Below are positions 4,024-21,319 of a stretch of 64,000 bases of DNA, piece after piece. The position numbers were made by a program, and so were the translations under genes. The stretch is taken from IMG/VR virus record IMGVR_UViG_3300031565_005154; one strand, written 5' to 3'. The notes under the pieces are model-generated. The model did no database searches and had not been told where the DNA came from. It saw nothing but the letters and a program-made list of their open reading frames with translations. Positions within the stretch are counted from its first letter, which is position 1. Every line of letters begins with the position of its first letter. The stretch comes from a virus.

Positions 4024-4047
4024 GGGCAGCTTTTGCTGCCCTTTTTT
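4024..4047 (+). terminator. Rho-independent terminator
   Basis: gggcagc-tttt-gctgccc followed by T6. Confidence 0.85.
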
Positions 4048-4056
4048 ATTATTTGT

Positions 4057-4085
4057 GGAACAAACAGGTGGCTGAGACGTATAAT
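4057..4085 (+). promoter_or_regulatory. Class E promoter GGAAC-N16-CGTATAAT
   Basis: GGAAC 4057-4061, CGTATAAT 4078-4085; same spacing in 6 copies. Confidence 0.75.
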
Positions 4086-4105
4086 GATGTGAAAGGAATT
4101 GGTGT

Positions 4106-5340: not shown

Positions 5341-5457
5341 ATGGTAATCTTTCTGATTAAAATCTACTTATTGGGCCTTCTCTCTATTATAGGATTTATG
5401 GCTGGGTTGTTTATTTTTGGTATCTTTGTTTGGCCTATTATTAGGAATAGATTTTAA
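5341..5457 (+). CDS. 38-aa single-pass membrane peptide
   Basis: MVIFLIKIYLLGLLSIIGFMAGLFIFGIFVWPIIRNRF; TAATG-coupled to ligA. Confidence 0.5.
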   Translation: MVIFLIKIYLLGLLSIIGFMAGLFIFGIFVWPIIRNRF

Positions 5458-7361
5458 TGGTAGATACGAAACAACTAGAAAAGGCTTCGGAAGCTTATTA
5501 CGCTGGTTCACCAATTATGACAGATACGGAGTTCGATTCGGCTATTGCTGAACTACGAAGAAATGATCCTGATAATTATTTCCTTAAACGTGTTGGATCG
5601 CCCGTTCCTGGTACATTAAAAGCCAGTCATACCATCCCCATGGGCAGTCTTTCAAATGCCAATAACGAACAAGAATTTCTCGCATGGATTCCAGGCAATA
5701 CAGACATTTGTCTTTCCCACAAACTAGATGGTTCCTCTTTGGAGTTGGTTTATCAAGATGGTTCGTTTATACAAGCCATTACTCGTGGAGATGGTAAGAC
5801 TGGGGAAGATGTTACCAGGAATGTTATTAAGTCTGGCAATGTTCCATTGTCAATTCATCCATCAATTACTTCTGTTCGATGTGAATGTTTAATACACAAG
5901 GATGATTGGACCGATCACTTTAAGGGCGATGCTAACCCTCGTAATTCTGCTGCTGGTACTCTCCGTCGCCACGATGGCCACAACGCCAAGTATTTGCAAT
6001 TTTACGCATTTGACGCCATACTGGATACTTACGATTGTAGCGATGAAATTTTTGAGGCTTCTAAGTCCGAAAGCGAACTTCTTGAGTTGCTCGAAGAATG
6101 GTTTTATATACCTGGTTATACGTACACACACAATACGCACGATCTTGCCGAATGGTGTCAAATATGTGAAAAGATGCGGGATAATCTCAAATACGAAATA
6201 GACGGAGTAGTAGCTAAAATAGACGATCGTACTAGATCACAAGCAATGGGTGGTCGTGATGGTCGTCCGAAGGGTCAGATTGCTATCAAGTTTAAGCCTC
6301 GTGGCGGTGAGACTGTTCTTAACAACGTGGTGTGGCAAGTCGGTCATACTGGATCGCTTACGCCTGTTGGTGAAGTATCTCCTGTTGGTGTCGGTGGAAC
6401 TATAATTCGACGTGTTACATTATGTAATATGGACGAGATTGAAAGGTTGGGCATTGCTATTAGTGATCGAGTTGAGGTGGTTCGTGCTGGCGATGTTATT
6501 CCAAAACTATCTAGGCGAATTGGTCTTGGCAATCAAAGACAAAGGATTAATTACCCACAAACATGTCCGGAATGTGGAAGCAAGACATCAAAAGATGGGG
6601 CACGGCTTTTCTGTTTGAACGACCAATGTCCAGGTACATCCCTGGGTCGCGTTATGACGTGGATCAAAAAACGGAATATTCTTAATCTTGGAGTTGGTAT
6701 TATTAAGGCCGCTATGATAGATCGTATTGATCAACTATATTATTCCCCAATACGTTACCAGAACGATAAACCGTTAGATGCTTGGGCTAGTGTCGACATA
6801 GGAAATGGTGTTCTTGGCGAAAAGCGAGCAAAGAAAATTATAGAAGCCATTGAAAAATCTAGATCGGTTTCTCTATCTGAATTTTTGGGTTCTATAGGAA
6901 TTAAAGGCATCGGCAGGTCTCTCTGTCGTGTTCTTTGTGGGGGACTAGGACTGAAGACGATCGATGATGTGTTTGCCGTTCGTCCAGAACAAATAGAATC
7001 GTTAGACGGATTTGGTCATACGAGAGCACATAATTTCTGTAGCTGGGTATTGGAACATGATGAAGAAGTATTCGATTTAGCTTCTGAGATGAATTTTGAG
7101 GATCAGCCAGACACCAAAGGGATGGACGGGTCGTTAAGCGGTGAGGTTATCTGTTTCACCGGTAAGTCTCCAAAACCCCGTCCAGAAATGAGTCAACTAG
7201 CTGAGTCTGCTGGAGCATCTGTTAGCAGTTCCATAAACGCACACACCACTATATTAGTTATTGCTGATCCAGAAAGCGAGTCATCTAAGGCGGTTAAAGC
7301 TCGCCAGATGGGGATGAGGCTTATGTCCCCGGATGAGTTTTTGACTATGGCTGGTGTATAA
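5457..7361 (+). CDS. ligA: NAD-dependent DNA ligase
   Basis: KLDG adenylylation motif, AITRGDG, NPRNSAAG, EIDGVV, OB fold (WQVGHTG..TPV, AGDVIP), C4 zinc finger, HhH repeats, C-terminal BRCT. Confidence 0.97.
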   Translation: MVDTKQLEKASEAYYAGSPIMTDTEFDSAIAELRRNDPDNYFLKRVGSPVPGTLKASHTIPMGSLSNANNEQEFLAWIPGNTDICLSHKLDGSSLELVYQDGSFIQAITRGDGKTGEDVTRNVIKSGNVPLSIHPSITSVRCECLIHKDDWTDHFKGDANPRNSAAGTLRRHDGHNAKYLQFYAFDAILDTYDCSDEIFEASKSESELLELLEEWFYIPGYTYTHNTHDLAEWCQICEKMRDNLKYEIDGVVAKIDDRTRSQAMGGRDGRPKGQIAIKFKPRGGETVLNNVVWQVGHTGSLTPVGEVSPVGVGGTIIRRVTLCNMDEIERLGIAISDRVEVVRAGDVIPKLSRRIGLGNQRQRINYPQTCPECGSKTSKDGARLFCLNDQCPGTSLGRVMTWIKKRNILNLGVGIIKAAMIDRIDQLYYSPIRYQNDKPLDAWASVDIGNGVLGEKRAKKIIEAIEKSRSVSLSEFLGSIGIKGIGRSLCRVLCGGLGLKTIDDVFAVRPEQIESLDGFGHTRAHNFCSWVLEHDEEVFDLASEMNFEDQPDTKGMDGSLSGEVICFTGKSPKPRPEMSQLAESAGASVSSSINAHTTILVIADPESESSKAVKARQMGMRLMSPDEFLTMAGV

Positions 7362-7362
7362 T
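7353..7362 (+). promoter_or_regulatory. Class L promoter GGTGTATAAT overlapping the ligA stop
   Basis: Exact motif; followed about 95 nt later by a strong terminator. Confidence 0.5.
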
Positions 7363-7365
7363 ATT

Positions 7366-7473
7366 ATGAACGAAAGTAATAAGCAGGCGTCGAATTTTAG
7401 TTACGCCACCTTGTGCATCGTTCTTACCTTAGTGACCGGAGCCGCAACGCGGCTCCTTTTTTTCGTTGTCTAA
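7366..7473 (+). CDS. 35-aa hydrophobic leader-like peptide spanning a terminator
   Basis: MNESNKQASNFSYATLCIVLTLVTGAATRLLFFVV; TAATG-coupled to the next gene. Confidence 0.35.
   Translation: MNESNKQASNFSYATLCIVLTLVTGAATRLLFFVV
7438..7463 (+). terminator. Rho-independent terminator
   Basis: ggagccgc-aac-gcggctcc + T7. Confidence 0.85.
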
Positions 7474-7784
7474 TGTTGAAATTGTGGTATCTAATCCTAC
7501 CGATAACTGTGTTCCTGGTATCGTGTTTTGATCTGGGCGCAACCTTATATTTCGGAAATACATGTAATTATTTTGAGGAAGCAAATCCCGTAGCCGCTCA
7601 TGTGTGGGGTAACTATGGTGAAACAGGTCTTATAATTTTCAAGCTGATCGTCACTTTGGTGTCGTGCCTAGCTATGGGTTGGATATTGACCAATAAAGAA
7701 CAGCCATGGCGAATATTTGTTACGGTGTTCGGTATTACAACATGCGGTTTATTAATGGGTTGGTGGATTTTTTGGATTTTTTGA
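7473..7784 (+). CDS. Small multi-pass membrane protein (DUF5658-like)
   Basis: D...T...EEANPVA...G...FK motif, three hydrophobic segments. Confidence 0.6.
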   Translation: MLKLWYLILPITVFLVSCFDLGATLYFGNTCNYFEEANPVAAHVWGNYGETGLIIFKLIVTLVSCLAMGWILTNKEQPWRIFVTVFGITTCGLLMGWWIFWIF

Positions 7785-7785
7785 T

Positions 7786-7814
7786 GGAACACGGATGGTG
7801 GTTGGACGTATAAT
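7786..7814 (+). promoter_or_regulatory. Class E promoter GGAAC-N16-CGTATAAT
   Basis: GGAAC 7786-7790, CGTATAAT 7807-7814; directly upstream of the tRNA-like RNA. Confidence 0.75.
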
Positions 7815-7824
7815 AAGATGTAAT

Positions 7825-7903
7825 GGGACAGTAGCTCAGATGGCAGAGCATTGCATTAGCCGGTATAATGTAACGGTCGTGGGTTCGAGTCCCACCTGTC
7901 TCG
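7825..7903 (+). tRNA. Atypical tRNA-like gene: canonical acceptor, D and T arms, anticodon arm extended by 6 nt; anticodon unassignable; no encoded CCA
   Basis: GGGACAG/CTGTCTC acceptor, TA, GCTC-AGATGGCA-GAGC, TTGCATTA-GCCGGTA-TAATGTAA, CGGTC, GTGGG-TTCGAGT-CCCAC. Confidence 0.75.
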
Positions 7904-7947
7904 GTAATATATTAAACTGTATCTGTGACTCAAAAGGAGATATCGGT

Positions 7948-8277
7948 ATGATGCTAAAAACAAAAGATGGACATGAATTATTTCGCGGAGATGAATGTTT
8001 TGTTCTCTCGTTTGAAGAAGATGGTGAATACATTGAATCTTCAATAAAATGTATCTATGGTGGTTTTTGGGTCAAGGATAATACACAACTTGTAGCTTCT
8101 TTGCCACCAGGTTGTTCTGGATCATTTATTCCAACGACTGAAACAATGCATCGTTTTGAATTTGCTGATGATGAAGATCAAAAATTCGATCTTTTGAGAT
8201 ATGAAGTAAACAATCTGGTAATCACAGATTTGTCTGGTGTTGCAACGGTTACTAAGCAGAGGCTGAAAGACAATTAG
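7948..8277 (+). CDS. Hypothetical protein
   Basis: AAGGAG RBS before ATG 7948; longer track ORF overlaps the tRNA-like gene. Confidence 0.6.
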   Translation: MMLKTKDGHELFRGDECFVLSFEEDGEYIESSIKCIYGGFWVKDNTQLVASLPPGCSGSFIPTTETMHRFEFADDEDQKFDLLRYEVNNLVITDLSGVATVTKQRLKDN

Positions 8278-8295
8278 TGGTGGGAAAGCCGAACC

Positions 8296-8883
8296 ATGAA
8301 AACACTTATTCATGAAGACCGTTTACAAACAAGAATTGCCGAAATGGCAAAAGAGATTGACTTGTATTATCGGTCGCAGGAATGGTACAAATACACTACT
8401 CAGCCCGTCCATCTAATTGGTGTAATGCTTGGTGCGATTCCGTTCATGGAAGCTTTAGTCCAAAACTTGTCTATTCGTACAGAGTGCCATTGGATTAGGA
8501 TGTCGTCGTATTGTGGTACAACCGGGAAAGTACGATCACCTAAAAGTTTAGCCGAACCCACAAAACGGTTCCGTGGAGATACCCAATTTAATAATCACAT
8601 ATTGTTAGTTGATGATATCTTAGAAACAGGCGAAACACTAAATATCATTCAGAAGAAATATGAGTGGCCAGGTGATGACATTAGAACAGCCGTGCTTTTG
8701 AGGAAGCCAGGAAAAGCCCTCTCTGGTATAACGGCTGATTTTGTTGGATTTGATATTCCTGACAATTTCGTTGTCGGATACGGACTCGATTACGACGGTC
8801 AATATAGAGATTTGCCATACGTGGCAGTTTGGAGTGAAGATGAATCTAGATCAAGCGAAAGCAAAACTAAACAGTGTAAGTAA
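8296..8883 (+). CDS. hpt: Hypoxanthine-guanine phosphoribosyltransferase
   Basis: PRPP-binding ILLVDDILETGETL; RMSSY; FVVGYGLDY...YRDLPYV. Confidence 0.92.
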   Translation: MKTLIHEDRLQTRIAEMAKEIDLYYRSQEWYKYTTQPVHLIGVMLGAIPFMEALVQNLSIRTECHWIRMSSYCGTTGKVRSPKSLAEPTKRFRGDTQFNNHILLVDDILETGETLNIIQKKYEWPGDDIRTAVLLRKPGKALSGITADFVGFDIPDNFVVGYGLDYDGQYRDLPYVAVWSEDESRSSESKTKQCK

Positions 8884-9280
8884 ATCTACAGCACATACCA
8901 ATCCGAAGGTTTTGGTTAGTGAATTGTGTGCTGTTGTAAAGTTTCTGCTAGACGAAATAGGGAGGGTGCGTACGCCCGTATTGGTGACCCTTGAAACTAC
9001 TGAGTTAGATTTGTCAGACGACAAACTGCCACCATGTGATCCATATGTATCACCCCCTATGATGCCGCCTGAACCGATACACAAGCCATCACTTCCGCCA
9101 TCAGAACTTGATATTCAAATGCCATCGGTAAAGAGACCGCCGACCATGGCTGGAAACGAGAATCCAGACCCACCGATTGGTAAACGACCAGTACCACCGC
9201 CACCGCCACCGCCGCTGCGACTACCCAATAATACTGGTCTACCAACATATACAGAACAAGAATTCGGAGAGATAGGATAG
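8840..9280 (+). CDS. Proline-rich hypothetical protein
   Basis: GGAG before ATG 8840; P7 run encoded by (CCACCG)3CCG. Confidence 0.6.
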   Translation: MNLDQAKAKLNSVSKSTAHTNPKVLVSELCAVVKFLLDEIGRVRTPVLVTLETTELDLSDDKLPPCDPYVSPPMMPPEPIHKPSLPPSELDIQMPSVKRPPTMAGNENPDPPIGKRPVPPPPPPPLRLPNNTGLPTYTEQEFGEIG

Positions 9281-11343
9281 TGTCTGAAATATCCGAACAT
9301 ACTGCCGAAGTAGTGGAAGTTGGTGAATTAATACCTCATCCAAATGCCGACAATCTGAGTATTGTTTTGATTGGCGATTTTCAATGCATAGTGAGAACAA
9401 ATGATTGGCAATGTGGTGATTTGGCCATTTATATCGAACCAGATAGTATAGTCCCAGAAACCAAGGAATTTGAATTTCTTGGAGAACACCGCAGGATTAA
9501 AGCCCGCAAACTTCGGGGAGAATGGTCTGTCGGCCTATTAATTCCTGCACCAGAAGGCGCCAAGGTCGGTGACGACTACATGAAGCAACTAGGGATTACT
9601 CATTACGATCCACCTGTCAAGGGCGACTTTAACACCGGTGGGGAAAATGTGAAACCACCGCGAATTAGTGAGCATTCAACCGCTGGTCTATTCACACCAG
9701 TATATGATGTGTTAAACTTTCGGAAGTATTCCGAACGTTTTCAAGCTGGTGAAGAAGTTATTGTTACTGAAAAGATACACGGATGTGTAAATTCTACGAC
9801 ACGTATTTCAATGCCCAATGGTCAAATATCTACAATAAAAGAATTGATTGACCAGAATTATAATGGAGAAATTTTAGGTTACGATTTTGATTTGAATAAA
9901 GTAGTGCCGACTAAAGTGAAACAAATTTACAAAAATGGTAAGGGAAATAAGTGGATAAGAATTAAATTTAATAGATACGGAGCCGGACGTGGGAATTATT
10001 TTGGATCATTAAAATGTACTGATAATCACAAAATTTTTAGTGTTAATCATAATTGTTTTATTGAAGCTCAATTTCTAAAAATTGATGATACAGTAAGATT
10101 AATCAGATCAGAATGGAATTTAACTCCTATTCAGGAACAAGTTTTAATGGGTAAAATGCTCGGAGACGGTAGTTATGGTCACAGTAATTCTGCTGGTTTT
10201 GTTTGTTTCAGCCACAAAAAAGATCACGAAGATTATTTGTTGTGGACTGAGCAAGCGTTGGGAGAAGTTTGTGGAAATAGACAAGCGGAATATGTTAGCG
10301 GATATGGTACCAACATGATTAGATCACGGAGTATATCCAATGTGTTTATAAAGGATTTATTTCGTGATTGGTTTGTGAATAATCGCAAAGAAGTTCCTGT
10401 GTCTATTACACCAAAACTAGGACCGATAGCATTGGCTTTTTGGTATATGGACGACGGTAGTCTTGTTCACAACGAAGGTCAAGAAGATCGAGCCGTATTT
10501 GCGACGAATGGGTTTTCAGAGGAAAGTATTGATAACCTTATATTGGCTTTGGCAAAATTCGATATTCATGCCATCAAGTACAGTAGTTCTGGATGGCGAT
10601 TGAGATTAAAGTCGGATGATGCGGAGAAACTTTTTCTAATTATTGCTCCTTATGTACCATTGGTTATGCAGTATAAATTACCAAAACGTTATCGTGGCCA
10701 CAATGGTTGGATACCATCTAAGGAAAATATATATAAATCAATATGTGTTGATCAGTCAGTTATTAGTATAGAACATATTAAAGAAAATAGACAAAAATAT
10801 GATTTAGAAACTGAAACGCACAATTATTTTGCCCACGGTATCCTGATTCATAATTGCAATTCACGCTTTGTTTGTGTAGATGATAAGATGTATTGTGGGT
10901 CTCGTAGATTCTGGAAACAGGAAGACCCGAATAATCTTTGGTGGAAAGCTTTGGCTAATTGTGGTGTTTTAGAAGCGTGGTGTCGGCATCATCAGGGACT
11001 ACCCGTATATGGAGAGGTTTTTGGGCAAGTTCAAAATTTGAAATACGGTGCTACAAAGGGTGAGATTTATTTTGCTGCTTTTGATATCTTAAAAGGTAAT
11101 CAATGGCTTGATTTTGACGAAGCGCATGATATTGGTGCTTCATTACCATGGGTGCCGCTAGTTTATCGTGGACCATTCTACAAAGACAAGATATTTGCGT
11201 TTGCCGAGGGGGGCTCGTTATATCCCTTTGCGCAAAACATCAGAGAGGGTGTTGTAATAAAACCAGTACACGAACGCACAGACCGCAAGATCGGACGTGT
11301 TCAACTTAAGATTGTCAGTAACCAGTATTTAAGTAAGAGCTAG
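9280..11343 (+). CDS. ATP-dependent RNA ligase (DRB0094/Rnl5-type, N-terminal OB domain) interrupted by an intein
   Basis: HPNADNL...GDLAIYIEPDS...IKARKLRGEWSVGLL; motif I TEKIHG; YGEVFG; FAAFDI; REGVVIK; LKIVS. Confidence 0.9.
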   Translation: MSEISEHTAEVVEVGELIPHPNADNLSIVLIGDFQCIVRTNDWQCGDLAIYIEPDSIVPETKEFEFLGEHRRIKARKLRGEWSVGLLIPAPEGAKVGDDYMKQLGITHYDPPVKGDFNTGGENVKPPRISEHSTAGLFTPVYDVLNFRKYSERFQAGEEVIVTEKIHGCVNSTTRISMPNGQISTIKELIDQNYNGEILGYDFDLNKVVPTKVKQIYKNGKGNKWIRIKFNRYGAGRGNYFGSLKCTDNHKIFSVNHNCFIEAQFLKIDDTVRLIRSEWNLTPIQEQVLMGKMLGDGSYGHSNSAGFVCFSHKKDHEDYLLWTEQALGEVCGNRQAEYVSGYGTNMIRSRSISNVFIKDLFRDWFVNNRKEVPVSITPKLGPIALAFWYMDDGSLVHNEGQEDRAVFATNGFSEESIDNLILALAKFDIHAIKYSSSGWRLRLKSDDAEKLFLIIAPYVPLVMQYKLPKRYRGHNGWIPSKENIYKSICVDQSVISIEHIKENRQKYDLETETHNYFAHGILIHNCNSRFVCVDDKMYCGSRRFWKQEDPNNLWWKALANCGVLEAWCRHHQGLPVYGEVFGQVQNLKYGATKGEIYFAAFDILKGNQWLDFDEAHDIGASLPWVPLVYRGPFYKDKIFAFAEGGSLYPFAQNIREGVVIKPVHERTDRKIGRVQLKIVSNQYLSKS
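9784..10854 (+). mobile_element. Intein (357 aa) with LAGLIDADG homing endonuclease in the RNA ligase
   Basis: KIHG|CVNSTT...ETHNYFAHGILIHN|C; LAGLIDADG-like MGKMLGDGS and AFWYMDDGS. Confidence 0.92.
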
Positions 11344-11354
11344 GTATTGGTAAT

Positions 11355-11480
11355 ATGAAGATTAAACCGCTATTTGCATGGTACGATTTGTGGATAGGGA
11401 TATATTGGGACCAAAAGAGTCGTGTATTATATATATTCCCGATACCAACATTGGGTATAAGTGTTTCATTCAGAAGGTAA
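11355..11480 (+). CDS. 41-aa small phage protein
   Basis: MKIKPLFAWYDLWIGIYWDQKSRVLYIFPIPTLGISVSFRR fills the intergenic gap. Confidence 0.55.
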   Translation: MKIKPLFAWYDLWIGIYWDQKSRVLYIFPIPTLGISVSFRR

Positions 11481-11498
11481 TTATGGGAGGAATGTTTG

Positions 11499-11774
11499 AT
11501 GCTAAAAAAAATAAGAGAAAAACTTGATCGAAGTAGACAAGCAATAGATAGTAAGCAGCATTCAGAATATGTTGAAGCCTATTTATCTGATGTTGTTCAA
11601 ATGATGATGAAGGGTCTTGAGCAGGGCACTATCCGACTAAAAGGTCCAGAAGATTTTACAGATGAAGAATGGCAAGAAATGGTTAGAACAGCCACAGAAA
11701 TGCGAATCGAACAAGAAGAAAAGCACAGGGAATGGTTGGAGCAATTAGAGAAAGATAAAAAATTAAAGGAATAG
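11499..11774 (+). CDS. Hypothetical charged helical protein
   Basis: GGAGG RBS 8 nt before ATG 11499. Confidence 0.6.
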   Translation: MLKKIREKLDRSRQAIDSKQHSEYVEAYLSDVVQMMMKGLEQGTIRLKGPEDFTDEEWQEMVRTATEMRIEQEEKHREWLEQLEKDKKLKE

Positions 11775-11776
11775 CA

Positions 11777-12274
11777 ATGCTTAAATTCACAACTGGAGAT
11801 ATGTTTGACGTTAATGCCAACATCCTGATTAACACAATAAACTGTGTGGGAGTAATGGGATGCGGAGTAGCTCTCGCGTTCAAGAAAAAATATCCAGGTA
11901 TGTTTCGAGAATATGCTGGTTTGTGTCGGTTACAGAAGATACAACCTGGAGTTCTTTGGAATTACCACACAACTGACGATAAGGTTATTGTTAATTTCCC
12001 AACCAAGTACCACTGGAGAAAGCAATCCGAATATTCTTACGTAGAACGTGGATTAGGAGAACTAAAATCTCTGTTAATGCTTCACGCTACTTTTACTGTG
12101 TCGGGTACGCCTATTGTTGCCATACCAGCACTGGGTTGTGGACACGGTGGGTTAGATTGGGATGTTGTTAAAGCCATGATTACTCAATATCTTGGTGATT
12201 TGGAAAATGTAGATATATATGTTTTTCAGCCACACGATTCTAGGCAAATAGGAGATAGAAATGCCGTACATTGA
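11777..12274 (+). CDS. Macrodomain ADP-ribosyl hydrolase (DarG/TARG1-like)
   Basis: GDMF...INTINCVGVMGCGVALAFKKKYP...NFPTK.HWR..S...IPALGCGHGGLDW. Confidence 0.88.
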   Translation: MLKFTTGDMFDVNANILINTINCVGVMGCGVALAFKKKYPGMFREYAGLCRLQKIQPGVLWNYHTTDDKVIVNFPTKYHWRKQSEYSYVERGLGELKSLLMLHATFTVSGTPIVAIPALGCGHGGLDWDVVKAMITQYLGDLENVDIYVFQPHDSRQIGDRNAVH

Positions 12275-12542
12275 AAAAAAGTTTCGTTCTGAATATGACG
12301 ATGAAATTGATCGTCTTGTTCCAAAATTGGACGGATGGGATAATGATGCGCTATCTGGTCATCTTAATTATGTCTTTTTCCGTATAGCTCGTATTTTGGG
12401 CGATGGTGAATCATATGCTAGGATGGCTGTTATTTCGTCCGCTCTATCTGAAGCTCAAGCAGAGTTTCGTAGAAGAGTAATGGCTCCATATGAGGATAAA
12501 AAAATCATCTCCAATGGAGATGTCATGAAGAAACCCGACTGA
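12261..12542 (+). CDS. Hypothetical phage protein (DUF6899-like)
   Basis: MPYI...GHLNY...EFRRRVMAPYED.KI..NGDV. Confidence 0.6.
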   Translation: MPYIEKKFRSEYDDEIDRLVPKLDGWDNDALSGHLNYVFFRIARILGDGESYARMAVISSALSEAQAEFRRRVMAPYEDKKIISNGDVMKKPD

Positions 12543-12735
12543 CAAAATAACCTATGTACCAACAAACATTACCGTTGGATCAATTTGGGCTGGTAGAGGA
12601 TTACGAGTACGAATCCTACACGTTGGTTTAAGTATTGTTGATGTACAACTACTAGGTATACCCAAGAAATACGGTGTTTATCGATGGCAAGCAGAAAGCC
12701 TGAGAGATATGGCACGAATTAATTAGGAGAAGTGA

Positions 12736-13035
12736 ATGTTAAAAGTAATGTGTGGAACGGATAATATTGAAATTAGATTCGATCACAGAATGCAGGAGCC
12801 TTATGAAATTGAGGGCCTAACCGGCGTGTGTGTTGAGGAAAGTCGGAGATGTTCTATTGCAACGGTTAATGTTAATGGCAGGTACGTCGGTGAAGGAATA
12901 GCTATTTGTCATCCATCAGACAATTTTTGTCGTACTATTGGTAGAAAGCGGGCTTTGGCAGATGCGATGTATGCGTTGACCAAAGATGCCAGAACGGCCG
13001 CGTGGAGTGCATACAAAGAAAGATGCAAAATTTAA
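12736..13035 (+). CDS. Hypothetical phage protein
   Basis: GGAG RBS; GIAICHPSDNF...GRKRAL motif. Confidence 0.6.
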   Translation: MLKVMCGTDNIEIRFDHRMQEPYEIEGLTGVCVEESRRCSIATVNVNGRYVGEGIAICHPSDNFCRTIGRKRALADAMYALTKDARTAAWSAYKERCKI

Positions 13036-13412
13036 TGCGAATCTTTATTCTTGAAGACAATCCAGATCGTATGATCAAGTTCAGACGAGAACTTATTGGG
13101 CACGAGGTAGATCATGCCGAAACTGTTGAGTCTGGAACTAACTTAGTGTATAATAATAGGTATGATCTTCTTTTTCTAGATCACGATCTTGGTGGTGAAA
13201 TAATGGTCGATTCCAGTGAACCCAATACGGGATACAAACTAGCTGAGTTTATCGCATCATTCACATCAAATAAAGAAACACCATGTGTTGTGCATTCGTG
13301 TAATCCTGGTGGTGCCGATAATATAGTTCGTGCGCTTCCTCACGCCGTCAAACTACCATTTCCGTCTTTGGATATTAAATCTGTTGTAAAGTGGGTAGAA
13401 CGAAAGGGATAG
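13035..13412 (+). CDS. Cyclic-phosphate-processing receiver (cREC)-like protein
   Basis: IFILEDN...YDLLFLDHDLGG...TGYKLAEFI...VVHSCNPGGA. Confidence 0.75.
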   Translation: MRIFILEDNPDRMIKFRRELIGHEVDHAETVESGTNLVYNNRYDLLFLDHDLGGEIMVDSSEPNTGYKLAEFIASFTSNKETPCVVHSCNPGGADNIVRALPHAVKLPFPSLDIKSVVKWVERKG

Positions 13413-13415
13413 TTT

Positions 13416-13634
13416 ATGAGTTCGAACAAAAAGAAACGAGAACATGTTAAAACTGACCCTCCGGATCAGACTATACTCGATTCTATAGGTAGTCCAAATG
13501 CATGGACACCCGAACGAGAAGATGCCTGGATAGGTGAGCTTGGTAAGATATCGGCAAGTGAAATATACGGGAGATTCCCTCCGATGAAAAAGCCGAGTAA
13601 TGTTAGTTTCAGAGGCAAAAATAATGGTGGATGA
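13416..13634 (+). CDS. Hypothetical protein
   Basis: 72-aa ORF packed in operon. Confidence 0.5.
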   Translation: MSSNKKKREHVKTDPPDQTILDSIGSPNAWTPEREDAWIGELGKISASEIYGRFPPMKKPSNVSFRGKNNGG

Positions 13635-13661
13635 AATTTGGAAAGATATGGGGGTTTTGAG

Positions 13662-13883
13662 ATGAAATCATGTCGTAAGATATCGTTGGCGATTTTTCTT
13701 ACAGCGTGTATGCTGTTGTGTAGTGGTTGTAATCTCTTGGAGGGGTTAGCGAGCGATGTTCAAGGGTGGGACATTTCGGCTTGCGTGGACGGGTTTGGGA
13801 CGTGTTTTGAGCTTTGGAAAGATAACGCAGACAAATTTGACGATGCCTTTTCGGATGCGCTGGGTACTATAACGGAGCGATAA
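13662..13883 (+). CDS. Small lipoprotein
   Basis: Basic N-terminus, hydrophobic core, lipobox LCSG-C (MKSCRKISLAIFLTACMLLCSGC). Confidence 0.6.
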   Translation: MKSCRKISLAIFLTACMLLCSGCNLLEGLASDVQGWDISACVDGFGTCFELWKDNADKFDDAFSDALGTITER

Positions 13884-14342
13884 ATGGATAGTGCAATCCC
13901 GAGGAAAGACTGCCCAGATTGTCATGGTACCGGTAAAATAGAACTTCTGGTATCTACCGTTATGTGTAACTGCGTTCGACCATCATTTCATAATGGCATG
14001 ACACCAGAAATGATCAAGGATATCGATCCAAATATATCCAGGCACGCATCGAAAGAACTCAATGATTATATCAATGAAACTCTCGATGTTGATATCAAAT
14101 GGGCCAATGATAGTTGTACGTGCTTTATATCACCACCATGTGGATTTTGTACTAGATATGCCGATGCCAATTTAGATGAACCAGAATATTGTAAAGCTTG
14201 TGGTGATCCATCTCCCACGGAACAGGATTTATTACACAAATGTTCCAAATGTGGTCAATTAGTTTGTGATTTATGTTTATCCACAGTTAGCGCTCCAGTT
14301 ATTGGTCCAATAGAATATCTTTGTCGTAATTGCGGAGAATAA
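13884..14342 (+). CDS. Cys-rich multi-zinc-finger protein
   Basis: CPDCHGTG, CKACG, CSKCG, CDLC, CRNC. Confidence 0.6.
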   Translation: MDSAIPRKDCPDCHGTGKIELLVSTVMCNCVRPSFHNGMTPEMIKDIDPNISRHASKELNDYINETLDVDIKWANDSCTCFISPPCGFCTRYADANLDEPEYCKACGDPSPTEQDLLHKCSKCGQLVCDLCLSTVSAPVIGPIEYLCRNCGE

Positions 14343-14343
14343 C

Positions 14344-14574
14344 ATGATACCACAAACAGGACAGATATACAGAAAACATGTTACCGCAGATACTACATGG
14401 CGATTAGAGCGTCGATTAATACTTGATGCCACGGATACTCAAGTATTTTATGAGGAATTATTTGAGGCACCAATTGGAACAACCGTAGAATATGACCCAA
14501 TTTCTCATCAAAAACAAATAGGGATCAAAGCCTGGAAACTCTGGGTTAGAACAGCAACGCTAGAAGGGGCCTAA
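14344..14574 (+). CDS. Hypothetical protein
   Basis: 76-aa ORF packed in operon. Confidence 0.55.
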   Translation: MIPQTGQIYRKHVTADTTWRLERRLILDATDTQVFYEELFEAPIGTTVEYDPISHQKQIGIKAWKLWVRTATLEGA

Positions 14575-14655
14575 TAATTCGTTTCGTGGCCGCTGCTGAC
14601 TTTTATTGTCTGGCTTGGGTCGTAAGACCCCCCCTAACTCCTAGGAGGTAATATC

Positions 14656-14892
14656 GTGACAGATTGGAAAAATGAACTTTCAGAAGCGATGGATCGAATT
14701 ACTAAGCGAGCGATGGAAGCTGCTACTGCTGTTATTCGCAAGGACGGCCCTACGAATACGCCATACTGCGTTTATTCTGAGAAGACTGGGCGTAAATTCG
14801 GGTGTTACAAGACTAAAGAAGGCGCTGAAAAAAGACTCAAGCAAATTGAGATGTTCAAGCATATTAAAGGTGAAGAAAATAATGGTGATTAG
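14656..14892 (+). CDS. Small basic protein, possibly nucleic-acid binding
   Basis: AGGAGG RBS, GTG start; YCVYSEKTGRKFGCYKTKEGAEKRLKQIEMFK. Confidence 0.65.
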   Translation: MTDWKNELSEAMDRITKRAMEAATAVIRKDGPTNTPYCVYSEKTGRKFGCYKTKEGAEKRLKQIEMFKHIKGEENNGD

Positions 14893-14896
14893 CTTG

Positions 14897-14950
14897 CCTG
14901 CCATGTGCAGGTGGAGTAACGGTGCCGTCATGTGGCGGCACTAGCTTTTT
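14897..14950 (+). terminator. Twin hairpins sharing CATGTG; the second is followed by a U-tract
   Basis: cctgc-catgt-gcagg (14897-14911) and gtgccgtc-atgt-ggcggcac (14922-14941) + agcttttt. Confidence 0.55.
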
Positions 14951-14959
14951 ATTTTTGTT

Positions 14960-14988
14960 GGAACAAATATGGTAGTTATAGGTACAAT
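14960..14988 (+). promoter_or_regulatory. Class E promoter GGAAC-N16-GGTACAAT
   Basis: GGAAC 14960-14964, GGTACAAT 14981-14988. Confidence 0.7.
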
Positions 14989-15041
14989 AATACTGTGCAA
15001 GGAACCACCCGGTCGAACTATATGCAGGGGGAATATACCCG

Positions 15042-15641
15042 ATGAAAACCACAGTTGTGAATATCCGGACACATAAATACGATGCGTATATTGGACGAGA
15101 AGGACATGGTCAAGATGGCTATTTTGGCAATCCTTTCAGTGTGTCTAGGGATGGTGGCCGTGATCGCGTAATTGCTTTGTATCGGGAATATTTCTATAAG
15201 CGATTACGAGTTGATCCAGAATTTGCAAGACGAATAAAAGAGTTGAAGGGCAAGAAACTCGGATGTTTCTGTGTTCCAAAACCGTGTCATGGTAATATTA
15301 TTGCTGATTATTTGAATATTGAACCAAAAGTTCAACCTTATGTCGATGCGTTATTCGCTAAGGGTTTTTATACTTTTTCGTCTTGCGATGGTGGTGATGG
15401 TCATTCATTCAAGAGAAGAACAATTAAGATTAATGTAGATCAGCCGACTATTGATGATCCATATGGATATAATATTGTTATTCGCGGAGAACGAAGATGC
15501 TATGAGAGATTTATAGATTTGTGTGATTTTGTTGAAGGACAGAAATGGACATACTGCAAAGCATTGTTGGTTAGAGAATATATAATAAATGATCAGGATA
15601 TGCCAGAAGCAAGTGTCCATTTTGAATTGGTATGGAATTAA
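15042..15641 (+). CDS. DUF4326-domain protein with C-terminal extension
   Basis: VVNIR..YDAYIGR...YFGNPF...LKGKKLGCFC.PKPCHG.IIA. Confidence 0.8.
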   Translation: MKTTVVNIRTHKYDAYIGREGHGQDGYFGNPFSVSRDGGRDRVIALYREYFYKRLRVDPEFARRIKELKGKKLGCFCVPKPCHGNIIADYLNIEPKVQPYVDALFAKGFYTFSSCDGGDGHSFKRRTIKINVDQPTIDDPYGYNIVIRGERRCYERFIDLCDFVEGQKWTYCKALLVREYIINDQDMPEASVHFELVWN

Positions 15642-15652
15642 CGAAGAGTGCC

Positions 15653-16003
15653 ATGAAAGTTGTTGTGTGCGGTTGTCGTAATTGGAAATGGTTCGAAATT
15701 ATTTATGAACGATTAGCTAAGTTACCTTCTAACGCGCTTATCATTGAGGGTGGGGCTAGTGGTGCCGATCGTCAGGCTCGTAACGCTGCATTAGAAATTG
15801 GTCTTGAAGTGGTTGAATTTCCGGCAGCATGGAAGAAATACGGTAAAGCAGCAGGACCAACAAGGAACATTAAGATGTTGGACACTAAGCCGTCCTTAGT
15901 AATCGCGTTCCACAATGATATTGAAAATTCTAAGGGAACGAAACATACGGTCGCGGAAGCTAGAAAACGTGGTATTGAAGTTGAAATAATTGGTTCTACA
16001 TAG
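15653..16003 (+). CDS. SLOG-family protein (YspA/DUF2493-like)
   Basis: MKVVVCGCRNW...IIEGGASGAD...AAGPTRNIKML...VIAFH...SKGTKHTV. Confidence 0.85.
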   Translation: MKVVVCGCRNWKWFEIIYERLAKLPSNALIIEGGASGADRQARNAALEIGLEVVEFPAAWKKYGKAAGPTRNIKMLDTKPSLVIAFHNDIENSKGTKHTVAEARKRGIEVEIIGST

Positions 16004-16015
16004 AACAGGGTGAAA

Positions 16016-16088
16016 CAGGGTGTAGCTCAATTGGTAGAGTGCGCGGTTTGGGGCCGCGATGTTGGGGGTTCGAGTCCCTTCACCCTGA
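16016..16088 (+). tRNA. tRNA-Pro(UGG), no encoded CCA
   Basis: CAGGGTG/CACCCTG acceptor (C1:G72, A73), CGCGG-TTTGGGG-CCGCG anticodon arm, GGGGG-TTCGAGT-CCCTT T arm. Confidence 0.93.
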
Positions 16089-16111
16089 ATTTTATTGGAG
16101 ACAACTGAAAC

Positions 16112-16306
16112 ATGAAAGAAGATATTGTTGTGCGAGAAGCATTGGTAACAGCATGGAATCATTTTGTGAAACTTGAACCGACTCATCCAGATGATATTGA
16201 TGATTTCCGCAGAGCTATACATGAATGTCAGCGTATTATGGGTATAAGACAATTGAGAAGGTGTGACCCGGAGCATTGGCCAATTATTGAACAACCAAAG
16301 GTGTGA
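16112..16306 (+). CDS. Hypothetical protein
   Basis: GGAG RBS; LE.THPDDIDDFRRAIHECQRI. Confidence 0.6.
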   Translation: MKEDIVVREALVTAWNHFVKLEPTHPDDIDDFRRAIHECQRIMGIRQLRRCDPEHWPIIEQPKV

Positions 16307-16307
16307 T

Positions 16308-16535
16308 ATGTTTGATGAATGGATCGAAACATTTCTGTGGTTTAAGCTGGGAATTGATGATCCTGATCCACTGGAATTTAAGGTTTTATCTCCACCGGAT
16401 TGTTCGGACGAAGAACGTAAGAAGTTATTAGAGAAGAATGCTAGTCAGATTGTTGGTATTATTCAAAAATTGACGGGTGAAAAATTGGTTATACAAGGAC
16501 AATATAGGTTAGTGCGAAAGGATATGATCTCATGA
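16308..16535 (+). CDS. Hypothetical protein
   Basis: ATG 16308 follows the upstream stop. Confidence 0.5.
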   Translation: MFDEWIETFLWFKLGIDDPDPLEFKVLSPPDCSDEERKKLLEKNASQIVGIIQKLTGEKLVIQGQYRLVRKDMIS

Positions 16536-16795
16536 CAGAATTTTTTGAATGCGAGTGTATGTCAAACGAACACACCCTTAGATTCAGCCTTGATGCTTTC
16601 GATACCGAGCTTTATGTATCTGTTTTCCTGAATCAACATCGCAGTTTCTTTGGTAAATTATGGACTGCTGTCAAATATATATATGGTTACAAATGTAAGG
16701 ACGGGCACTGGGATTGTACTATGTTGAAGGTCGAAGATGCCGATCGTCTTATTGCATTGCTTCAAAAATATAAAAGGTTGTCTAAGTGTCAATAA
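16532..16795 (+). CDS. Hypothetical phage protein
   Basis: ATGA overlap; FFECEC...H... Confidence 0.55.
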   Translation: MTEFFECECMSNEHTLRFSLDAFDTELYVSVFLNQHRSFFGKLWTAVKYIYGYKCKDGHWDCTMLKVEDADRLIALLQKYKRLSKCQ

Positions 16796-17238
16796 CTCCA
16801 CGAATAGTTCATAGGGCGATCATGGATTTAAGAAGAGATGGATTATATATAGACGACCTAGAGGGATTCTTGATACACCCCGATGATCTATGTTCGCTAT
16901 TGGACGAATCTGTAGATCGTGGCCTGGATTGGACATATAATCATTTAATCACAAATAATATGTCTGGAGAGGTTTTTGTCTGTGGTGTGAAAGTTGTCAC
17001 AAGCTTTCATGTAAGTCCTGGGACACTTTTTAGAGTTTTCAAAACAAACCCATCCACATGTAGTCCATACATTACGAAAACTAATCCTACGAGACAAATG
17101 TTGGACCTACAAGATAAAATACAAAACACCGTTATACCGATGCCAAATAACTTGCTCCTTCCGACTGTTGTTGATGAGAAAAAAGAAGAGACGAAGAAGA
17201 AACATAGCCAGACACGAAAGATAGAGTTGGATTGGTGA
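16786..17238 (+). CDS. Hypothetical protein
   Basis: 150-aa ORF in packed operon. Confidence 0.55.
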   Translation: MSITPRIVHRAIMDLRRDGLYIDDLEGFLIHPDDLCSLLDESVDRGLDWTYNHLITNNMSGEVFVCGVKVVTSFHVSPGTLFRVFKTNPSTCSPYITKTNPTRQMLDLQDKIQNTVIPMPNNLLLPTVVDEKKEETKKKHSQTRKIELDW

Positions 17239-17417
17239 TCCTTATGAGGAAGGCAAGGAAAGTTTGGGAAAATAACAGAGAGATTTCCAAGAAGCCACGA
17301 CTTGGTAAGCATTGGTGTGATAATTGTGATTGTTGTTTGGTGGGATCGGGAGAAAAATGTTCTGAATGTGGCAAAATACAGTTACCCAAAAGAAACAAAA
17401 AATACCATAAACCGTAA
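17232..17417 (+). CDS. Small zinc-ribbon protein
   Basis: WCDNCDC...CSECG. Confidence 0.5.
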   Translation: MVILMRKARKVWENNREISKKPRLGKHWCDNCDCCLVGSGEKCSECGKIQLPKRNKKYHKP

Positions 17418-17428
17418 GGGAATAGTGT

Positions 17429-17716
17429 ATGATTAAATTATGCTATAAATTGTTTTACTGGATCAGAAATTATCTAATGTGTAGATGCCATGATTGTCAA
17501 AGGCCATATAGCGACAATGGCTTTCAAGATTTATTGGTACAAAAATCGGTTTGGAAAATAATTAGTCCTACTGGGGGTGAAGGTGGTATGTTATGTCCAT
17601 CCTGTCTAGTACGTCGTATTGTGGATGCTGGATTGAAAGACGTGCCCGCTGTTTTTGTTAGTGGTCCATTGGTAATGATAAGTGAGCAAGAAATGAAGAA
17701 AATTTTGAATGATTGA
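17429..17716 (+). CDS. Small zinc-finger protein
   Basis: CHDC...LCPSC. Confidence 0.55.
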   Translation: MIKLCYKLFYWIRNYLMCRCHDCQRPYSDNGFQDLLVQKSVWKIISPTGGEGGMLCPSCLVRRIVDAGLKDVPAVFVSGPLVMISEQEMKKILND

Positions 17717-17746
17717 TAATCTTTAATAAGTGATGGAGATGTTAAT

Positions 17747-18109
17747 ATGACAAAGCACGGATCATCGCCATATCTGGAATGTAGCACCAAAGGCGATAAA
17801 CGATTTTCGGCATTCTGTGCTCGTCTGCCAAATCGTGGGAACAAGACTATCGAGGAAATTTATCAAGCAGCTAAAATCTTCGAAGATGGGTCTACTGGCC
17901 TGACATGGAAAGAGGCGAAGGGGAGACGGGCAATTAACGCCAGCGAATTAGCCATACTATATTCCGAATTGTGGAATGAATATATAGACGAAAATCCTCG
18001 GTTGCTCGAAGTGTTGAGAGTTGTTAGTGGAGTAAGTGATATGTTTGGTCAACGAGGCCATGTCTGTCAAGCAACTGAACTTTGGAGGATTAAGTGTCAA
18101 AATAGGTAG
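17747..18109 (+). CDS. NADAR-like protein (putative guanine-ADP-ribosyl hydrolase)
   Basis: LECSTKGDKRFSAF...TIEEIYQAAKIF...LWNEYIDENPRLLEVL resembles the NADAR FSNF / E..YQaaK / NP.L signature. Confidence 0.6.
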   Translation: MTKHGSSPYLECSTKGDKRFSAFCARLPNRGNKTIEEIYQAAKIFEDGSTGLTWKEAKGRRAINASELAILYSELWNEYIDENPRLLEVLRVVSGVSDMFGQRGHVCQATELWRIKCQNR

Positions 18110-20466: not shown

Positions 20467-21319
20467 GGATAATATTGTTGAAACAGTGGATAATGATGGG
20501 AAAAAACTGAAATTAACTGTGAAGGCTCCTGGACATAAGGTTTTACAAGAAGCACAAATGGTATATAATATCAGGCTCACAGCATTAATTCGACAAAGTG
20601 CATCTGAAGATACACAACTTCTATCGAGACAACAACTAGATCAACACTTAGAACATATGGGCATCTGGACAGAAAAGGAGGCTCAACAGTTTGTCAGACT
20701 TCAATTGGAATTGAGAGAACTTGAGTTAAAGCTTAAAACAGGTGGCATAAAAGTCTCTGAAGCAAAAGCCATTGCATTGAGCATGAGAGCGAAAAGGGCT
20801 CTATTGTTGGTTCTATATAATCGCAAAGTTCAGTTTGAAGGGGTCACCATAGAGTCGATTGCTGAGAACCATAGGTTTAAGTTCTTGCTCACTCAATGTG
20901 TCTTTTATCATGAAACTGATATGCGGTTTTTTGATAATATTAATACATATGAGGCTCTGCAAGAAGAGCAGGCGTCTATAGCTGCGGCTACTGCTCTGGC
21001 TGGTCAACTATACGGATATGACAACAAAACTGAAGCTAATTTATCTGAAAATCAATGGTTGAGACAATACAAATTTGCCGACAAAGACGGAAGACTTATC
21101 GATGAGTGTGGTCATCTTGTGGATACAGAAGGTCGTTTAATTAATGAAGATGGTCGCTTTGTCAACAAGAATGGTGAGCTAACTGACAATCAGGGTCGTA
21201 GTGTGGATTCTGATGGCAATTTTGTAGTAAAAACCAAACCATTTCTTGATGATGATACTGGAGAGCCGATAGTAACTAAAATAAAAGCGAAACAGAAACG
21301 AAAAAGCAAAAAGGATTAG
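20456..21319 (+). CDS. Putative tail assembly chaperone with C-terminal 7-aa DxxGx(L/F)(I/V) repeats
   Basis: GGAGG RBS; immediately before TMP; DKDGRLI-DECGHLV-DTEGRLI-NEDGRFV-NKNGELT-DNQGRSV-DSDGNFV. Confidence 0.5.
   Translation: MATKDNIVETVDNDGKKLKLTVKAPGHKVLQEAQMVYNIRLTALIRQSASEDTQLLSRQQLDQHLEHMGIWTEKEAQQFVRLQLELRELELKLKTGGIKVSEAKAIALSMRAKRALLLVLYNRKVQFEGVTIESIAENHRFKFLLTQCVFYHETDMRFFDNINTYEALQEEQASIAAATALAGQLYGYDNKTEANLSENQWLRQYKFADKDGRLIDECGHLVDTEGRLINEDGRFVNKNGELTDNQGRSVDSDGNFVVKTKPFLDDDTGEPIVTKIKAKQKRKSKKD

Follow-up and report, generated by a model that had tools for sequence, protein, structure and literature searches.

A tRNA-shaped phage gene with six surplus bases between U33 and U34, possibly a non-decoding look-alike, beside an RNA-repair and NAD island

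The window, a 64,000-nt stretch of DNA from an uncultured soil phage, carries at 7825-7903 a 79-nt gene with the shape of a tRNA, the sole abnormality of which is a 13-nt loop in the anticodon arm. The gene is read here as a tRNA-derived, non-decoding look-alike that is selected for its tRNA-shaped upper body, a reading to which we give a probability of roughly 0.5, with both function and expression predicted from the sequence. It is favoured because damage confined to the decoding arm is repeated in many viral genes whose other stems are perfect, a pattern that random decay is unlikely to produce.

A sequence-only reading of this DNA had described canonical acceptor (with one G-U pair), D and T arms and an anticodon arm 6 nt too long. 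Direct reading and the Rfam tRNA model (RF00005; 51.3 bits, gathering score 29; E 4e-8 over the window) confirmed all three canonical arms, and both folds proposed for the anticodon arm, a 5-bp stem with a 13-nt loop and an 8-bp stem closing GCCGGTA, were recovered (Table 1). The bases of the tertiary contacts are complete: U8, A14, G15:C48, G18G19, A21, G46, G53, T54-T55-C56 and A58. With its 7-bp acceptor, D and T arms, tertiary-contact bases and a score above gathering, the gene qualifies as a tRNA cloverleaf. The covariance model places the surplus bases inside the anticodon loop, and the minimum-free-energy structure from RNAfold is the 8-bp stem closing GCCGGTA (-27.5 kcal/mol, z -2.16). 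Of the checks proposed in the sequence-only reading, the covariance model supported a tRNA, but ARAGORN at default settings misread the gene as a poor, forced Leu(tag) fold. With introns allowed, ARAGORN returned Ile(tat) with a 6-nt insert, AGCCGG, after U33; the loop minus this hexamer is TT-TAT-AA, a perfect Ile(UAU) loop.

As it stands, the arm departs from that of a decoder, which has a 5-bp stem, a 7-nt loop, U33 and a purine at 37: the loop is 13 nt long, and the alternative GCCGGUA loop on the 8-bp stem has C33 and U37. The gene also departs from tRNA-Ile(UAU), since UAUAA is displaced by AGCCGG, the discriminator is G73 and the nearest body by BLAST is an Arg(UCU). It does agree with a phage tRNA-like stable RNA, having an acceptor and a T arm and no decoding anticodon arm.

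Table 1. Coordinates of the RNA gene, its parts and the neighbouring features in the window
Feature	Coordinates	Strand	Basis
NAD-dependent DNA ligase	5457-7361		gene order
DUF5658 membrane protein	7413-7784		gene order
Promoter-like element: GGAACA (7786-7791), 17-nt spacer, TATAAT (7809-7814), ending 10 nt 5' of the RNA gene	7786-7814	+	direct reading; predicted
tRNA-shaped gene, 79 nt, no encoded CCA	7825-7903	+	Rfam RF00005, ARAGORN, RNAfold
Acceptor GGGACAG/CTGTCTC, 7 bp, one G2-U71 pair	7825-7831 / 7896-7902	+	direct reading
D arm GCTC-AGATGGCA-GAGC	7834-7849	+	direct reading
Internal promoter-like match: ATGGCA (D-loop), 18-nt spacer, TATAAT over the loop-stem junction	7840-7869	+	sigma-70 scan; putative
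Anticodon-arm stem TTGCA/TGTAA, 5 bp	7851-7855 / 7869-7873	+	direct reading
13-nt 'anticodon' loop TTAGCCGGTATAA	7856-7868	+	direct reading, ARAGORN, RNAfold
Hexamer AGCCGG, surplus relative to canonical tRNA-Ile(UAU) of related phages	7858-7863	+	ARAGORN with introns, alignment A5
7-nt loop GCCGGTA of the alternative 8-bp stem	7859-7865	+	outer 3 loop bases per side pair
Variable loop CGGTC	7874-7878	+	direct reading
T arm GTGGG-TTCGAGT-CCCAC	7879-7895	+	direct reading
Discriminator G (G73)	7903	+	direct reading
Shine-Dalgarno AAGGAG	7934-7939	+
109-aa ORF, no known family (ORF 7948)	7948-8277	+
Phosphoribosyltransferase	8296-8883	+	Pfam/PHROG
RNA ligase split by LAGLIDADG intein	9280-11343	+	Pfam/PHROG
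Macro	11777-12274	+	Pfam/PHROG
DUF6899	12261-12542	+	Pfam/PHROG
cREC (cyclic-phosphate-processing receiver) protein	13002-13412	+	Pfam/PHROG
DUF4326	15042-15641	+	Pfam/PHROG
SLOG/YAcAr	15632-16003	+	Pfam/PHROG
tRNA-Pro(UGG)	16016-16088	+	ARAGORN, Rfam
NADAR-like protein	17747-18109	+	Pfam/PHROG

Relatives were drawn from an alignment of related ligases (A2), with which seven related IMG/VR contigs of 57-69% ligase identity were recovered. The two closest phage genomes, G001 and G002, carry ordinary tRNA-Ile(UAU) genes (L325 218-289 and L328 56-130, respectively) with the loops CTTATGA and CTTATAA, at other genome positions. The best BLAST match of the window gene is the tRNA-Arg(UCU) of cyanophage S-CAM9 (76% identity), and identity to the G002 tRNA-Ile(UAU) is 68% over 73 aligned positions. 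In the alignment of the window gene with these three (A5), it differs by AGCCGG between U33 and U34. The cloverleaf, the D stem and the T loop are shared with all three, and the flanks of its loop read TT...TATAA, compared with CT-TATAA in the Ile loop. In contrast, the six extra bases at 33/34, G73 and the genome position set the window gene apart from both tRNA types. Codon use in the window genes is heavy in AUA (38% of Ile codons), CCA (50% of Pro) and AGA (34% of Arg), and the only other tRNA in the window, tRNA-Pro(UGG), fits the top proline codon. Given this use of AUA and AGA, a decoder of one or the other would be expected in the phage and would be the probable ancestor of the window gene. 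The gene thus probably descends from an AUA- or AGA-type decoder, either Ile or Arg by amino-acid type.

Searches for closer relatives of the gene itself were negative. Exact-pattern scans of IMG/VR, with the 3' half of the window RNA or with its 5' half plus T loop, gave no match; a search of IMG/VR with the neighbouring DUF5658 protein returned no relatives; and megablast against phage records gave no match. A diverged orthologue carrying the insert was found neither by the IMG/VR pattern scans, nor among the ligase relatives, nor in a metagenome scan, so that selection on the window gene itself is presumed. Normal tRNAs in relatives together with an insertion unique to this gene had been named in advance as counting against a special role. 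Relatives do carry normal tRNA-Ile(UAU) genes, at other positions, but the loop enlarged by six bases is not unique (see below).

The gene recurs unchanged in other assemblies. The stretch 7719-8400 is present without any difference in a Logan contig of soil run X4, and 7678-7969 in one of soil run X6. The JGI contig Ga0307376_10030368 (L310), the sole contig returned by the metagenome scan for relatives, has no sequence change in the gene region and equals the window from ~7300 to the contig end at 8731. As the same sequence is found in X4, X6 and L310, 7825-7903 is not an assembly error, and the sequencing error that had been considered earlier is not borne out. The DNA ligase gene of L310 differs from that of the window by ~15% at the DNA level. 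Judged from these three identical assemblies, one of them (L310) with its diverged ligase gene alongside, the gene is stable in the population; the RNA module thus occurs in more than a single assembly and, if L310 is not chimeric, apparently next to two distinct ligase alleles.

Compared with window positions 5356-8731, L310 is a mosaic, with ~10-30 differing bases per 100 in the ligase gene and then none from ~7300. This is either the trace of a recent recombination at the 3' end of the ligase gene or an assembly chimera. Run X4 also holds a variant strain, which shares 7719-7833 (promoter plus the opening 9 nt of the RNA gene) and rejoins the window at 8283; between 7833 and 8283, 1068 other bases replace 449. 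A 288-nt contig of the same run agrees with the gene in its T arm, the 3' strand of the acceptor and the 3' flank, but carries GGCTTCGGCA, a hairpin of UUCG type, ahead of them, which hints at a variant allele with a sealed anticodon arm. Among the public runs that hold the window sequence, no RNA runs are listed.

The gene stands in front of an RNA-repair/NAD island. Downstream of ORF 7948, an accessory island spans 8296-18109 on the plus strand, and the RNA ligase that had been placed 1.4 kb downstream of the RNA is indeed there (Table 1). Homologues of this ligase in the relatives L003, L005, L006 and L008 (about 70-73% identical) are without the intein. The intein-free enzyme of L006 matches the Naegleria gruberi RNA ligase (PDB), and the window enzyme is a member of the same family. 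Ligases of this family seal duplex nicks, not broken anticodon loops. Sets of RNA ligases with cREC, Macro, NADAR and SLOG proteins are described as phage systems for RNA repair and NAD conflict (Iyer et al. 2021, PMC7824862), and the linkage of cREC with RNA ligase, Macro, SLOG and NADAR-like genes in the window is the linkage given there.

Motifs akin to the predicted promoter element in front of the gene occur at 4041-4101 (near 4073) and 16897-16957 (near 16929). The class E promoter claimed by the sequence-only reading is putative: a TATAAT lies 10 nt before the gene and related motifs recur, but a sigma-70 consensus scan of 7300-8500 did not call the 7786-7814 element. The top sigma-70-like site in that region is the match inside the gene at 7840-7869 (10/12, with a perfect -10), and its 18-nt spacing between ATGGCA and TATAAT is owed entirely to the 6-nt insert. 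Five such matches were found in the region against 3.5 expected in shuffled sequence. No terminator-like site is present between the RNA gene and ORF 7948, so the two are likely co-transcribed. The 3' part of the odd loop, 7861-7870 (CGGTATAATG), recurs with one change at the start codon of ORF 7948, 7944-7953 (CGGTATGATG), probably by chance, and matches to the complement of the 13-nt loop elsewhere in the window are at chance level.

A parallel case was found in two more distantly related contigs, L006 and L007 (58% ligase identity), in which a tmRNA and then a 79-nt tRNA-shaped gene lie between the DNA ligase and RNA ligase genes. This look-alike likewise combines a 5-bp stem with a 13-nt loop, CAGCAGGACCAAG, within which AGCAGG lies one base out of register with AGCCGG. 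No U occurs anywhere in the loop, so that no excision can create a U33. About half of the positions match between the two RNAs, which on sequence are not clearly homologous; by a rough post hoc estimate, the AGCNGG match between their loops would arise by chance in ~2% of cases. The hexamer AGCNGG, sought at a set distance from the T loop, turned up mostly in class II Leu/Ser tRNAs, as part of the anticodon stem, and in only a few odd tRNA-likes (L077, L117). In IMG/VR, the long form of the L006-type pattern occurs only in its own two contigs. The ORFs downstream of the window RNA and of the L006 RNA are unrelated, and a permissive Rfam search detected no tRNA-like RNA between the ligase genes of L003, L005 and L008, though the RNA ligase is present in them.

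The two L006 genes abut. In the stretch 12486-12916, identical in L007, the CCA that terminates the tmRNA (124 bits with Rfam) reaches 12837 and is followed directly, at 12838, by the first base of the look-alike, so that an RNase P cut of the look-alike would yield the mature tmRNA 3' end. The presence of tmRNA in relatives also indicates that the host is bacterial. Elsewhere in L006, at 20716-20802, ARAGORN calls a tRNA-Ser(cga) for which there is no Rfam tRNA report at the gathering score; it may be a spurious call or another aberrant tRNA-like gene.

The look-alikes extend beyond these two lineages. Within the same phage clade, tRNA-shaped genes of 96 nt (L071, 99-194, plus strand), 104 nt (L072, 104-207, minus strand) and 95 nt (L073, 105-199, minus strand) have normal acceptor, D and T arms and long, closed, multi-helix anticodon arms. 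ARAGORN at default settings missed all of these as well as the L006 gene. A scan of IMG/VR for a window-type D arm and T loop with 4-8 surplus nt between them returned at least 117 stretches, comprising at least 93 distinct sequences, and at least 82 of these pair at 6 or more of the 7 acceptor positions and lack a canonical anticodon arm. Among the matches listed, many arms end in tetraloops of UUCG or GNRA type. A further viral family in IMG/VR (L104, L119, L123, L146 and L154) keeps the acceptor, D and T arms intact, but its anticodon arm has shrunk to 4 bp and a 4-nt loop (GGAA-ACAA-TTCC). No homologues of the island genes (Rnl, cREC, Macro, LigA, PRTase, SLOG, DUF4326, NADAR) were found near the other enlarged-arm look-alikes. 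As tRNA finders miss or misread such genes and more than 80 were found by a single scan, they are probably widely under-annotated in viral genomes.

The look-alike reading can be laid out as a course of events. The RNA would be transcribed from the TATAAT 10 nt upstream, heading a transcript that runs into ORF 7948 and the RNA-repair/NAD island, as the missing terminator suggests. It would then take on the normal L-shape, for which the stems and tertiary-contact bases are intact. By analogy with general tRNA processing, host RNase P would trim a leader of 3-5 nt, a 3' endonuclease would free the RNA from the mRNA, and CCA would be added. With AGCCGG between U33 and U34, either the loop of the product would be 13 nt long or its arm would exceed the usual length by 3 bp, and UAU presumably could not take the place of an anticodon in the ribosomal A site; we know of no 13-nt loop of this kind that decodes. 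The outcome would be a stable tRNA mimic that could occupy proteins which bind tRNA through its acceptor/T/D body, and excision of the RNA from its transcript may, in addition, influence the form of the operon mRNA.

Within the look-alike reading, a mimic or competitor in a conflict over tRNA and a role mainly as a processing handle are about evenly balanced. The position of the gene at the head of an RNA-ligase/cREC/Macro/NADAR island argues for a mimic or competitor, as does the location of the insert at the U33/U34 junction, the cut site of PrrC-type anticodon nucleases. A handle is suggested by the L006 layout, in which the RNase P cut at the 5' end of the look-alike would make the CCA end of the tmRNA exactly. 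The mimic or decoy was one of three explanations offered by the sequence-only reading and is the best supported of them, since relatives and viral contigs show an intact upper body with a non-decoding arm, even if we know of no experimental demonstration of a decoy tRNA of this kind. Weighing against the look-alike reading are the perfect Ile(UAU) loop left without AGCCGG and the heavy use of AUA, which make a decoding role or origin attractive, the limited match to the L006 RNA, the lack of such a gene at this position in L003, L005 and L008, and the missing link between other enlarged-arm look-alikes and homologues of the island genes.

The most ordinary alternative is that a 6-nt insertion at U33/U34 recently killed a tRNA gene of the Ile(UAU) or Arg(UCU) type, the decay of which is still pending. 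We consider this unlikely, though it accounts for several observations: removal of AGCCGG restores a canonical loop, the closest relatives have a normal tRNA-Ile(UAU) elsewhere, so that the window copy could be spare, and no diverged orthologue with the insert was found. A very recent pseudogene would also keep its stems intact. However, everything else in the gene is perfect, down to the tertiary-contact bases, its own promoter-like element is retained, and the same module lies beside a diverged ligase gene in L310. Furthermore, at the corresponding genome position, a second lineage (L006) carries an independent 13-nt loop with a hexamer resembling AGCCGG, and in more than 80 viral genes the damage is limited to the anticodon arm, which random decay would not give. 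A working AUA (isoleucine) decoder, in which the six bases bulge 5' of the anticodon with U34-A38 stacked, or are cut out and religated as a mini-intron, is more doubtful still. It would suit the share of AUA among Ile codons, just as tRNA-Pro(UGG) suits CCA, the loop that starts UU and ends UAUAA as in the Ile(UAU) genes of relatives, and the RNA ligase and cREC protein encoded in the same island. Set against these, no decoding 13-nt loop is known to us or was found in the literature, the minimum-free-energy 8-bp stem moves the loop 3 bp further from the elbow than it should be, and the discriminator is G73, where E. coli tRNA-Ile has A73. The mini-intron version, a precursor needing the phage RNA ligase that the sequence-only reading had also offered, emerged weak: there is no bulge-helix-bulge, 6 nt are too short for a ribozyme and cannot self-splice, the ligase is of the Naegleria gruberi (NgrRnl) type, a sealer of duplex nicks, and excision in the L006 analogue, without a U in its loop, cannot give U33.

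A related idea, very improbable in our estimate, is that AGCNGG 5' of the anticodon (AGCCGG in the window, AGCAGG in L006) is a functional module, either a mini-intron removed by proteins or a switch that depends on a nuclease and a ligase. In the switch version, the RNA would become a working tRNA only once it had been cut, for instance by an anticodon nuclease of the host, and resealed by phage RNA-repair enzymes that the island encodes. The insert could also act at the DNA level, having widened the spacing of ATGGCA and TATAAT from 12 to 18 nt and so created, within the gene, a sigma-70-type promoter that would serve ORF 7948 and the island. That the site is the top promoter-like match in its region, with a perfect -10, lends this some appeal, as does the fact that TATAAT is expected in any Ile(UAU) loop with U39 next. 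We nevertheless hold such a promoter to be hardly probable: a promoter-like element already stands directly upstream of the gene, such matches are about as frequent as in shuffled sequence, the L006 analogue lacks these hexamers, and the preservation of every tRNA stem is left unexplained.

Among known systems, the closest are phage tRNA-like stable RNAs, the species 1 and 2 RNAs of T4 (rnaC, rnaD) and RNA1-3 of T5, which are roughly 120-140 nt long, much rearranged and unexplained in function. They share with the window RNA its phage origin, a tRNA-like acceptor/T-arm body with no usable anticodon, and a location among or beside tRNA genes. Unlike them, the window RNA is a full cloverleaf only six loop bases off a normal tRNA. 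Frameshift suppressors (sufD, SufB2, sufJ and engineered quadruplet decoders) are likewise normal tRNAs with extra bases in the anticodon loop, but they have one extra base (8-nt loops, rarely 9) and the window RNA has six. A frameshift-suppressor tRNA, another of the earlier suggestions, found no support: a 13-nt loop is far beyond 8 nt, and the neighbouring ORFs are open in one frame and need no shift.

The tRNA introns, of the bulge-helix-bulge kind in archaea and eukaryotes and of group I in bacteria, resemble the window locus in having extra loop sequence in an otherwise intact tRNA gene, with a nearby RNA ligase as a further intron-like feature of the locus. In contrast to them, the window insert lies 5' of the anticodon and not at 37/38, and has neither a bulge-helix-bulge nor a ribozyme core. 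A bulge-helix-bulge intron (two 3-nt bulges and a 4-bp helix) was rejected, as only the 5-bp/13-nt and 8-bp/7-nt folds are possible. A group I intron was also rejected, its core requiring ~200 nt or more against an insert of 6 nt with no Rfam intron match. To our knowledge, six nucleotides are fewer than in any intron of either kind. A search of the literature on enlarged anticodon loops and tRNA-like genes in phages found no description of the 13-nt-loop form. By analogy, the gene is most likely akin to the T4 and T5 tRNA-like stable RNAs, in a loop form for which no literature description was found.

Phage tRNA genes are now viewed as weapons against host defences that cut tRNAs, and non-decoding tRNA-shaped RNAs have been known since T4 and T5. 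The window gene poses the problem of such RNAs in its simplest form: a complete tRNA of textbook form that six bases at U33/U34 have disabled or re-purposed. Were it merely a fresh pseudogene, it would be ordinary, and if the AGCNGG module were real, it would represent a new kind of tRNA maturation in bacterial viruses. If the look-alikes are decoys, processing handles or repair-activated tRNAs, they would constitute a new layer in the phage-host conflict over translation.
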